In this document: positions 5,501-8,500 of the stretch, one piece after another
Numbering within the stretch: the first letter of the stretch is position 1
How the letters are laid out: every line of letters begins with the position of its first letter
Source: Escherichia coli
GTDB taxonomy: Bacteria; Pseudomonadota; Gammaproteobacteria; Enterobacterales; Enterobacteriaceae
Length of the DNA stretch: 64,000 bases
Direction: 5' to 3' (one strand)
Assembly (NCBI RefSeq): GCF_044324785.1
Contig: NZ_CP172127.1
Program-made: the position numbers

Positions 5501-8500
5501 CAATGGGATTTAAGCTTCCGTCTGAAACACTGGGAAGCCATCAAAAAAGCCGCTGAAAGCCGCCCAGCTCCATTCCTGATTCATCAGGAGAGCAACGTAA
5601 TCGTTCGCGCATTCCGCGATTACTTACGCCAGGACATCGGCGAAATCCTTATCGATAACCCGAAAGTGCTCGAGCTGGCACGTCAGCATATCGCTGCATT
5701 AGGTCGCCCGGATTTCAGCAGCAAAATCAAACTGTACACCGGCGAGATCCCGCTGTTCAGCCACTACCAGATCGAGTCACAGATCGAGTCCGCCTTCCAG
5801 CGTGAAGTTCGTCTGCCGTCTGGTGGTTCCATTGTTATCGACAGCACCGAAGCGTTAACGGCCATCGACATCAACTCCGCACGCGCGACCCGCGGCGGCG
5901 ATATCGAAGAAACCGCGTTTAACACCAACCTCGAAGCTGCCGATGAGATTGCTCGTCAGCTGCGCCTGCGTGACCTCGGCGGCCTGATTGTTATCGACTT
6001 CATCGACATGACGCCAGTACGCCACCAGCGTGCGGTAGAAAACCGTCTGCGTGAAGCGGTGCGTCAGGACCGTGCGCGTATTCAAATCAGCCATATTTCT
6101 CGCTTTGGCCTGCTGGAAATGTCCCGTCAGCGCCTGAGCCCATCACTGGGTGAATCCAGCCATCACGTCTGCCCTCGCTGCTCCGGTACCGGTACCGTGC
6201 GTGACAACGAATCGCTGTCGCTCTCTATTCTGCGTCTGATCGAAGAAGAAGCGCTGAAAGAGAACACCCAGGAAGTTCACGCCATTGTTCCTGTGCCAAT
6301 CGCTTCTTATCTGCTGAATGAAAAACGTTCTGCAGTGAATGCGATTGAAACTCGTCAGGACGGCGTGCGCTGTGTGATTGTGCCAAACGATCAGATGGAA
6401 ACCCCGCACTACCATGTGCTGCGCGTGCGCAAAGGGGAAGAAACCCCAACCTTAAGCTACATGCTGCCGAAGCTGCATGAAGAAGCGATGGCGCTGCCGT
6501 CTGAAGAAGAGTTCGCTGAACGTAAGCGTCCGGAACAACCTGCGCTGGCTACCTTTGCCATGCCGGATGTGCCGCCAGCGCCAACCCCAGCTGAACCTGC
6601 CGCGCCTGTCGTAGCCCCAGCACCTAAAGCTGCACCGGCAACACCAGCAGCGCCTGCACAACCTGGGCTGTTAAGCCGTTTCTTCGGCGCACTGAAAGCG
6701 CTGTTCAGCGGTGGTGAAGAAACCAAACCGACCGAGCAACCAGCACCGAAAGCAGAAGCGAAACCGGAACGTCAACAGGATCGTCGCAAGCCTCGTCAGA
6801 ACAACCGCCGTGACCGTAATGAGCGCCGCGACACCCGTAGTGAACGTACTGAAGGCAGCGATAATCGCGAAGAAAACCGTCGTAATCGTCGCCAGGCACA
6901 GCAGCAGACTGCCGAGACGCGTGAGAGCCGTCAGCAGGCTGAGGTAACGGAAAAAGCGCGTACCACCGACGAGCAGCAAACGCCGCGTCGTGAACGTAGC
7001 CGCCGCCGTAACGATGATAAACGTCAGGCGCAACAAGAAGTGAAGGCGCTGAATGTTGAAGAGCAATCTGTTCAGGAAACCGAACAGGAAGAACGTGTAC
7101 GTCCGGTTCAGCCGCGTCGTAAACAGCGTCAGCTCAATCAGAAAGTGCGTTACGAGCAAAGCGTAGCCGAAGAAGCGGTTGTCGCACCGGTGGTTGAAGA
7201 AACTGTCGCTGGCGAACCAATTGTTCAGGAAGCGCCAGCTCCACGCACAGAACTGGTGAAAGTCCCGCTGCCAGTCGTAGCGCAAGCTGCACCAGAACAG
7301 CAAGAAGAGAACAATGCCGATAATCGTGACAACGGTGGCATGCCGCGTCGTTCTCGCCGCTCGCCTCGTCACCTGCGCGTGAGTGGTCAGCGTCGTCGTC
7401 GCTATCGTGACGAGCGTTATCCAACCCAATCGCCAATGCCGTTGACCGTAGCGTGCGCATCTCCGGAACTGGCCTCTGGCAAAGTCTGGATCCGCTATCC
7501 AATTGTACGTCCGCAAGATGTACAGGTCGAAGAGCAGCGCGAACAGGAAGAAGTACAAGTGCAGCCGATGGTGACTGAGGTCCCTGTCGCCGCCGCTGTC
7601 GAACCTGTTGTTAGCGCACCGGTTGTTGAAGAAGTGGCTGAAGTTGTAGAAGCCCCCGTTCAGGTTGCCGAACCGCAACCGGAAGTGGTTGAAACGACGC
7701 ATCCTGAAGTGATTGCCGCCGCGGTAACTGAACAGCCGCAGGTGATTACCGAGTCTGATGTTGCCGTAGCCCAGGAAGTTGCAGAACACGCAGAACCGGT
7801 GGTTGAACCGCAGGAAGAGACGGCAGATATTGAAGAAGTTGCCGAAACTGCTGAGGTTGTGGTTGCTGAACCTGAAGTTGTTGCTCAACCTGCCGCGCCA
7901 GTCGTCGCTGAAGTCGCAGCAGAAGTTGAAACGGTAGCTGCGGTTGAACCTGAGGTCACCGTTGAGCATAACCACGCTACCGCGCCGATGACGCGCGCTC
8001 CGGCACCGGAATATGTTCCGGAAGCACCGCGTCACAGTGACTGGCAGCGCCCTACTTTCGCCTTCGAAGGTAAAGGTGCCGCAGGTGGTCATACGGCAAC
8101 GCATCATGCATCTGCCGCTCCTGCGCGTCCGCAACCTGTTGAGTAATAATTAGCTCAAGTAATCAAGCCCTGGTAACTGCCAGGGCTTTTTTATTTCATC
8201 TTTGAATCAACATATTAAAATTCATCAAATGGCATCCTTGCTAACCAACAATACAAAATAGGCAAAAAAATGCCCGCCCCGGCGATCCCAGAGCGGGCAG
8301 ACAAAACATACCCAGTTTCATGATATGTTTTAAAGCGAGCTTATTTGTTGAGCTGGAAGAGCGACAATCCCTGCATATCGGTAAATGCTTTATACGATGC
8401 CTGCAATGCCGTTTGCTGCATGATGTAAGATGAAATAGTTGCATTCCAGTCCACATCAACCAGATCGCTCATCTGCTGCGTTTGCCCTAAAGCGCGATCG

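Follow-up and report, generated by a model that had tools for sequence, protein, structure and literature searches.

A 64,000-nucleotide stretch of Escherichia coli DNA (RefSeq assembly GCF_044324785.1, contig NZ_CP172127.1), referred to here as the window, carries the gene for ribonuclease E (rne) on its plus strand and, embedded on the opposite strand of that gene's second half, an open reading frame (ORF) of 487 codons. The ORF had been noted in a first-pass annotation, and was recovered at exactly the positions given there (6671..8134, minus strand); its start codon is TTG. The analyses described below indicate that it is very probably a non-coding 'shadow' of rne, generated as a by-product of the composition of the tail of ribonuclease E, and that it does not warrant annotation.

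The sense gene (4961..8146, plus strand; 1061 amino acids) was identified from its reading frame, from Pfam searches, and from the annotation that lies under matching E. coli records. Its product contains an S1 domain at residues 36-117 (PF00575, 9.4e-13), an RNase_E_G domain at 121-391 (PF10150, 1.1e-98), an RNase_E_G_Thio domain at 403-488 (PF20833, 1.9e-31; the thioredoxin-like small domain), and a PNPase-binding PNPase_C segment at 1022-1058 (PF12111), together with the sequence CPRCSGTG, which corresponds to the CPxCxGxG motif described for the RNase E Zn-link (PMC4435900). The autoregulatory rne5 element of the 5' untranslated region is present upstream (Rfam RF00040, 4600..4936, plus strand, 260 bits), and the gene order rluC (3429..4388, minus), rne, flgL (8341..9294, minus) and flgK (9306..10949, minus) is the same as in K-12 and other E. 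coli records. Catalytic domains, Zn-link, disordered tail with PNPase site, and rne5 and synteny are all found, as fits ribonuclease E. When positions 6500..8146 were used as a query, matches were recovered in 5425 of 5426 complete E. coli genomes, nearly all at 97-99% identity, and 'rne: ribonuclease E' was the sole annotated feature under the match among the matches listed. The closest complete genome was that of strain VCSW5 (99.0%), with differences at 23 positions across the whole gene; 68 nucleotide positions differ between the window and K-12. The window accordingly derives from an E. coli or Shigella lineage with few representatives among the complete genomes. A sequence scan placed an intrinsic terminator (a hairpin followed by a T-run) immediately beyond the gene at 8165..8188 on the plus strand.

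The part of rne that lies opposite the ORF belongs to the non-catalytic C-terminal half of the protein, which serves as the scaffold of the degradosome (codons 530-1061, 6548..8143, plus strand; assigned from residue composition, with domain limits and disorder taken from PMC4435900). Published work describes residues 530-1061 as intrinsically disordered and as divided into a first part rich in R, N and Q and a second rich in A, E, P and V, with leucine under-represented (PMC4435900). The protein encoded here, which is near-identical in sequence to K-12 RNase E, shares with the non-catalytic region of the gamma-proteobacterial enzymes (Ait-Bara, Carpousis & Quentin 2014, PMC4435900) that bipartite bias, its low leucine content and the PNPase site at 1022-1058, and nothing material separates the two. 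Six residues (A 14.5, E 14.3, V 12.8, P 11.3, R 10.2 and Q 8.5%) together account for 71% of the C-terminal half, in which leucine makes up 2.1% and serine 3.4%, as against 10.9% and 7.0%, respectively, in the window's other genes. The last 490 codons of rne contain just 9 leucines and 18 serines, for which CTG, AGC and TCT are the favored codons and among which TCA is never used (0 of 18 serines), and T occupies the first codon position of rne in 4.7% of codons across 6671..8134, compared to 17.5% in reference genes. The first-pass annotation had described this region as encoding Arg-rich and Glu/Pro/Val-rich repeats. Both of the peptides that it quoted are present in the translation and the bias in composition is genuine, but Tandem Repeats Finder detected no tandem repeats in 6400..8200, and a search of the tail for DNA repeats returned only degenerate families of 18-27 nucleotides at 62-88% identity; the tail displays a composition bias with loose REE/AEPV-like reiteration, of the kind that PMC4435900 reports for RNase E, for which 'repeats' is too strong a term at the DNA level. 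One natural variant of this region was encountered in E. coli GN4738 (NZ_CM177114.1), in which rne (962..3538) encodes only 858 amino acids as the result of an in-frame loss of 203 tail codons; either at least one clinical isolate can do without much of its scaffold, or the assembly contains an error.

The antisense ORF begins at a TTG codon at 8134 (its first ATG lies at 8107), and ends at a TAA at 6673..6671 that is the complement of the leucine codon TTA at rne position 571 (6671..6673, plus strand; located by a codon scan). An in-frame TAA at 8150..8152, read from the minus-strand sequence, bounds the open frame just past the rne stop codon. Position 8134 is a third codon position of rne, so that the codons of the ORF lie directly opposite those of the gene, with antisense position 1 paired to rne position 3. 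Because the two frames are aligned in this manner, and stop codons on one strand are the reverse complements of codons on the other, an antisense TAA, TAG or TGA can occur only where rne uses TTA, CTA or TCA. The gene contains 12 such codons, of which 11 are found in codons 1-498, the last is at Leu571, and none occur thereafter; the lack of any antisense stop from Leu571 to the end of the gene follows from a tail that is poor in leucine and serine and that encodes them mostly by CTG, AGC and TCT. The earlier statement that the opposite strand is free of stops holds for the codon-aligned frame, which has a single stop in 6671..8134 (its own terminator); it does not hold for the other two minus-strand frames, which carry 7 and 20.

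In the mechanism that we propose, the disordered scaffold half, which consists largely of Ala, Glu, Val, Pro, Arg, Gln and Thr, contains so little leucine and serine that, in combination with codon choice, TTA, CTA and TCA are scarce and the codon-aligned antisense frame stays open; amino-acid bias reduces the expected number of stops from approximately 13 to approximately 3.6, and codon preference and some luck account for the rest. The effect of each factor was estimated by synonymous resampling with the RNase E protein sequence held fixed, using three codon tables (the window's other genes, the N-terminal half of rne, and whole rne). TTA, CTA and TCA together make up 2.7% of codons in the window's ordinary genes, which corresponds to 13.2 antisense stops per 490 codons and a probability of 1.5e-6 of encountering none. 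Once the RNase E sequence was fixed, 3.6 stops were expected with the usage of the other genes, 2.5 with that of the rne N-terminal half and 2.1 with that of the whole gene. The median of the longest resampled open run was 245-296 codons across the three tables, and the probability of a run of at least 490 codons was 0.025, 0.073 and 0.12, respectively. The same resampling of all 31 long ORFs of the window gave roughly uniform probabilities, among which that of rne was the second lowest (0.024, as compared to 0.018 for another gene), an unremarkable rank for a uniform distribution. Amino-acid composition is responsible for most of the effect, with codon preference and modest luck making up the remainder, and the length of the ORF is accounted for by the sense protein and its codon usage. 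The earlier proposal that biased composition explains the ORF is upheld by these figures, and can be refined: what keeps the frame open is a shortage of three particular codons in a single reading frame, and not base composition in general.

A related explanation, that the principal cause is the codon bias of a well-expressed gene that avoids the rare codons TTA, CTA and TCA, rather than its amino-acid composition, draws upon some of the same observations. PMC3454372 traces long frame -1 ORFs chiefly to codon bias in genes that are highly expressed; the serines and leucines of the tail are encoded, respectively, without TCA and mostly by CTG; and, as described below, run length across species follows the frequency of TTA, CTA and TCA as well as GC content. 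The N-terminal half of rne, however, uses TTA or CTA for 17% of its leucines and carries 11 antisense stops, and rne as a gene is therefore not avoiding these codons. Furthermore, composition alone lowers the expected number of stops from 13.2 to 3.6, and codon choice only from 3.6 to 0. After recoding of the tail with genome-average synonymous codon usage, the resampled probability of a run of at least 300 codons was 0.22 and that of a run of at least 200 codons was 0.86; composition is therefore the larger factor. Codon bias is a contributing factor inside the compositional explanation, and as a replacement for it is extremely improbable.

Comparison of 11 E. coli strains with rne genes of equal length demonstrated that the ends of the antisense frame differ within the species. 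In 8 of the 11, including K-12 and O157, codon 571 is TTG and the frame ends at rne codon 498; this K-12-type run reaches the TTA of Leu498 (window position 6452) and comprises 563 open codons. The run ends at codon 571 in the window and in VCSW5, and at codon 581 (CTA) in strain 300033, whose codon 571 is TTG. Both of the shorter forms result from synonymous leucine changes (TTA at 571 and CTA at 581), and the Leu571 TTA allele is common to the window, VCSW5 and E. albertii. The length of 487 amino acids is specific to the strain, and the 563-codon run is the form present in most of the strains sampled. Using K-12 as a reference, 24 single-base changes that are synonymous in rne and would create an antisense stop are possible in codons 499-1058; two such changes were observed within E. 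coli, as compared to 1.5 expected at the rate of other synonymous changes.

The homologous span of E. albertii contains 5 antisense stops, and its longest open run is 242 codons; three of the stops arise from synonymous changes (as compared to 3.9 expected) and two from non-synonymous changes. Both within E. coli and relative to E. albertii, new antisense stops have appeared at the rate expected under neutrality. The longest run in Citrobacter, Enterobacter, Klebsiella and Superficieibacter measures 175-389 codons, and its position is not constant; in some cases it falls in the N-terminal half of the gene. At the other extreme, the entire rne gene of several high-GC Pseudomonas (1055-1099 codons) is open in the antisense direction, and when one betaproteobacterial metagenome-assembled genome is included such whole-gene runs span 1040-1099 codons; these frames are open because TTA, CTA and TCA are entirely missing. 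When 80 species were compared, the share of rne taken up by its longest run was correlated with GC content (rho 0.91) and, inversely, with the combined frequency of TTA, CTA and TCA (rho -0.96). The first-pass annotation had held that conservation of the ORF independent of rne would speak for a gene. None was found: its ends vary within E. coli, stops interrupt its frame in E. albertii and in other enterics, and there is neither avoidance of stops nor conservation beyond very close relatives.

The coding signal of the two strands, a comparison that had also been suggested at the outset, was measured with a table of codon log-odds built from the 30 other long ORFs of the window. Across 6671..8134, the rne frame (which contains no stops) scored +0.358 bits per codon and the antisense ORF (with one stop, its own terminator) scored -0.006; the same antisense frame opposite the N-terminal half of rne, with 11 stops, scored -0.043. 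The predicted product would consist of F 13.9%, R 13.7%, L 12.9%, T 9.8%, C 3.9%, E 1.2% and P 0.4%, with no lysine at all, and a Pfam search of its 487 residues identified no family. When 5.8 billion protein clusters were searched with the same product, five matches were recovered: three unnamed fragments from gene callers, one unnamed ORF at 40% identity, and one chimeric entry named 'ribonuclease E, partial'. That last entry (NCBI/UniRef, 760 amino acids) consists of RNase E residues 1 to approximately 577, followed, after the junction 'RFFG', by a translation of the antisense ORF; as judged from its sequence, it would imply an inversion or misassembly within the rne tail, whose chimeric reading frame remains open because the antisense frame lacks stops. 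In the records examined, neither the Prokaryotic Genome Annotation Pipeline (PGAP) nor the K-12 annotation called the antisense ORF. In codon usage, composition, homologues and domains, the product does not display the properties of a protein-like sequence.

A second and smaller ORF occupies the same antisense frame further along the strand (6143..6415, minus; 90 amino acids), opposite rne codons 395-485. It corresponds to positions 1589754-1590026 (plus) of EDL933, which are listed in Table S12 of a survey of embedded antisense ORFs in E. coli (bioRxiv 10.1101/2020.11.18.388249) on the strength of a BLASTp match, at 58% identity, to a RefSeq 'hypothetical protein' of Serratia fonticola. The Table S12 entry was considered as evidence of expression and rejected, as it records only a BLASTp match, and the Serratia protein itself probably stems from a mistaken annotation of the strand opposite rne.

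The surroundings of the ORF offer little that would promote its expression. Upstream of it, on the same strand, lies the strong intrinsic terminator of flgL and FlgO (8271..8299, minus; a 12-bp stem with 9 GC pairs and a T7 tail), which, judged from its predicted structure, should halt read-through from flgKL before the ORF is reached. The 3' end of flgL with this terminator (approximately 8264..8341, minus) is the position of the K-12 small RNA FlgO (b4826), which is derived from a 3' untranslated region and converges on the rne terminator at 8165..8188. A consensus scan identified no promoter-like site between the flgL terminator and the start of the ORF, although such a scan is weak evidence either way. 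The same survey of E. coli reported 864 antisense ORFs transcribed in EDL933 across 12 conditions (Table S4), 216 with ribosome footprints (Table S6), and others in additional strains (Table S10). EDL933 rne lies at 1588023-1591208, and when these tables were searched by coordinate none contained an entry in the rne tail (EDL933 1588023-1589700 or K-12 1141182-1142900), with the limit that the survey's coverage thresholds disfavor long, weakly expressed ORFs. Absence from the published lists of antisense RNA-seq and Ribo-seq candidates is weak negative evidence against expression. We infer that the ORF is neither transcribed nor translated to functional effect.

Antisense transcription is widespread in E. 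coli, and the minus strand of the rne tail might instead specify a non-coding antisense RNA whose function is to regulate rne, in which case the open frame would be incidental. Within the ORF, a single weak promoter-like match is found on the minus strand (7530..7502, 9 of 12 positions). One such site is what chance would provide (0.6 +/- 0.7 expected), Rfam identified no family in 3000..10000 besides rne5, the synonymous divergence of the tail is not reduced, and none of the 864 transcribed EDL933 antisense ORFs is in the rne tail; the probability of this reading is close to nil.

The more serious competitor is the possibility that the ORF represents a real antisense overlapping gene or proto-gene of recent evolutionary origin, confined to E. 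coli and translated at a low level from the ATG at 8107 or the TTG at 8134. Several observations favor that view, and weigh against the interpretation of the ORF as a shadow: (i) about 480 codons (at least 481) are free of stops in all 11 of the equal-length E. coli strains, and two further strains with rne genes of different length likewise lack any stop-creating codon; (ii) the run lies at the long end of the resampled distribution, with nominally low probabilities (0.025-0.12 for the allele of the window, the lowest being that obtained with other-gene usage, and 0.007-0.016 for the commoner 563-codon allele of K-12); (iii) a Shine-Dalgarno-like AGGAG (8118..8122, minus; the reverse complement of the rne codons GCT-CCT-GCG) precedes the ATG at 8107 by a spacer of 10 nucleotides, and is the sole feature that favors translation; (iv) the ratio dNN/dNS is 0.31 (confidence interval (CI) 0.13-0.64) across the span of the ORF, which alone would suggest constraint; and (v) gene callers have called fragments of the ORF in a few assemblies, and claims of long antisense genes exist for E. 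coli and P. aeruginosa (PMC9927249 and PMC8850804). Probabilities as low as 0.007-0.016 would be expected for dozens of genes per genome, and the AGGAG was judged to be a chance match.

Tests of selection, in which changes were partitioned by their effect on each frame (in a manner similar to OLGenie), weigh against such a gene. The ratio dSN/dSS, which relates rne-synonymous changes that alter the antisense product to those that do not, was 0.77 within E. coli (CI 0.35-2.87) and 0.79 relative to E. albertii (CI 0.52-1.43), as compared to 0.95 in the N-terminal half; both intervals include 1, and the ratio is therefore not taken to lie below 1. Synonymous divergence of rne from E. albertii was 0.37-0.47 in the overlapped part and 0.33-0.34 in the N-terminal half, and is therefore not depressed in the overlap. 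Low values of dNN/dNS were reproduced in regions that contain antisense stops and harbor no such ORF: 0.45 in the Photorhabdus tail, 0.14, 0.34 and 0.48 in the N-terminal halves of Photorhabdus, Yersinia and Enterobacter, respectively, and 0.28 between E. coli and the stop-bearing copy of E. albertii. Controls from flgL and flgK were higher (0.62 and 0.80), with wide intervals. Purifying selection on the antisense frame was considered as the reason for the low dNN/dNS and rejected, given that the better-matched, stop-bearing controls range from 0.14 to 0.48; the ratio is low because RNase E tolerates changes at first codon positions (among A/T/P/S, V/I and E/Q/K) better than changes at second positions. 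No purifying selection beyond that of the controls was observed.

Additional observations stand against a proto-gene. Antisense stops accumulate at a neutral rate, with five in the E. albertii span; the C-terminal 73-83 codons of the product are dispensable in natural alleles; codon usage carries no signal and the composition of the product is implausible; no promoter-like site is found downstream of the flgL terminator; neither the transcribed nor the ribosome-protected antisense ORFs that have been published for EDL933 and K-12 include it; and strain GN4738, which lacks 203 codons of the rne tail, lacks part of the ORF as well. The reading of the ORF as a young gene is accordingly very unlikely. 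The same low probability attaches to a particular form of it, in which occasional transcription (such as that by polymerases that pass the flgL/FlgO terminator) would allow translation from the ATG at 8107 behind the AGGAG, to yield a Phe/Arg/Leu-rich product of approximately 480 amino acids on which no selection is yet detectable. The original advice that the ORF not be annotated as a gene was sound, inasmuch as it lacks a codon signal and a Pfam family, acquires stops neutrally, and is broken in E. albertii.

The interpretation of the ORF as a shadow of rne places it within a phenomenon that is already known, and it is an ordinary, understood artefact. Merino (1994) and Silke (1997), both cited by Mir et al. 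2012 (PMC3454372), described how bacterial genes can have long frame -1 ORFs on their opposite strand and how these depend on sense codon usage, and a survey of 929 genomes concluded that such antisense ORFs are generally not under negative selection (Moshensky & Alexeevski 2019, bioRxiv 10.1101/724807). That survey offers as a cautionary example the dnaK-antisense 'glutamate dehydrogenase' family ('NAD-GDH', PF10712). The rne ORF resembles these shadow ORFs in its codon-aligned antisense frame, in stops that fall at sense TTA, CTA and TCA codons, in a length set by the codon and amino-acid usage of the sense gene, in the absence of purifying selection on its translation, and in its occasional mis-annotation as a hypothetical protein. 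It differs in that the driver is a disordered region poor in leucine and serine, rather than very high expression or high genomic GC content, and in that the ORF is confined to the tail of the gene; a driver of composition in a genome of about 51-55% GC is the one slightly unusual point. With the antisense overlapping genes pop, asa, ano and laoB of enterohaemorrhagic E. coli (EHEC), and olg1 and olg2 of P. aeruginosa, it has in common a long ORF embedded antisense in a gamma-proteobacterial gene. The case for those candidates is built on a defined transcript and on ribosome footprints, to which phenotypes or purifying selection are added for some of them, whereas the ORF opposite rne displays neutral stops, no conservation outside of E. 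coli and no codon signal, and is not in published lists. It has every feature by which a shadow ORF is recognized, and lacks those features of a real overlapping gene that could be tested.

Two further observations concern the neighborhood of rne. An ORF of 124 amino acids lies antisense to the rne 5' untranslated region (4506..4880, minus), where it overlaps the rne5 element (RF00040, plus strand) and occupies the position of K-12 yceQ (b1085, 'DUF2655'). The yceQ gene is annotated in K-12 but was not called in any of the 12 E. coli records with PGAP annotation that were examined, and the ORF at its position may be another questionable one that overlaps a conserved RNA element. In addition, rne and flgL are separated in strains 1532WA and 300033 by an inserted toxin-antitoxin pair (4269..5053 and 4280..5064, respectively, in the sequences compared), made up of a TacA-family antitoxin and a GNAT acetyltransferase toxin, which is missing in the window and in K-12.

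Were the ORF to be translated and functional, against all of the evidence presented here, it would be remarkable for the essential rne gene of E. coli to have a protein of approximately 480 amino acids encoded on its antisense strand. As matters stand, its significance is that of a safeguard for annotation only: frame -1 ORFs opposite genes of biased composition or high GC content are a recurring source of spurious 'hypothetical proteins', and a few fragments of this ORF, together with its 90-residue neighbor in the same frame, are already found in public protein databases. The case of rne illustrates that a disordered protein region poor in leucine and serine can yield a very long shadow ORF even at moderate GC content.

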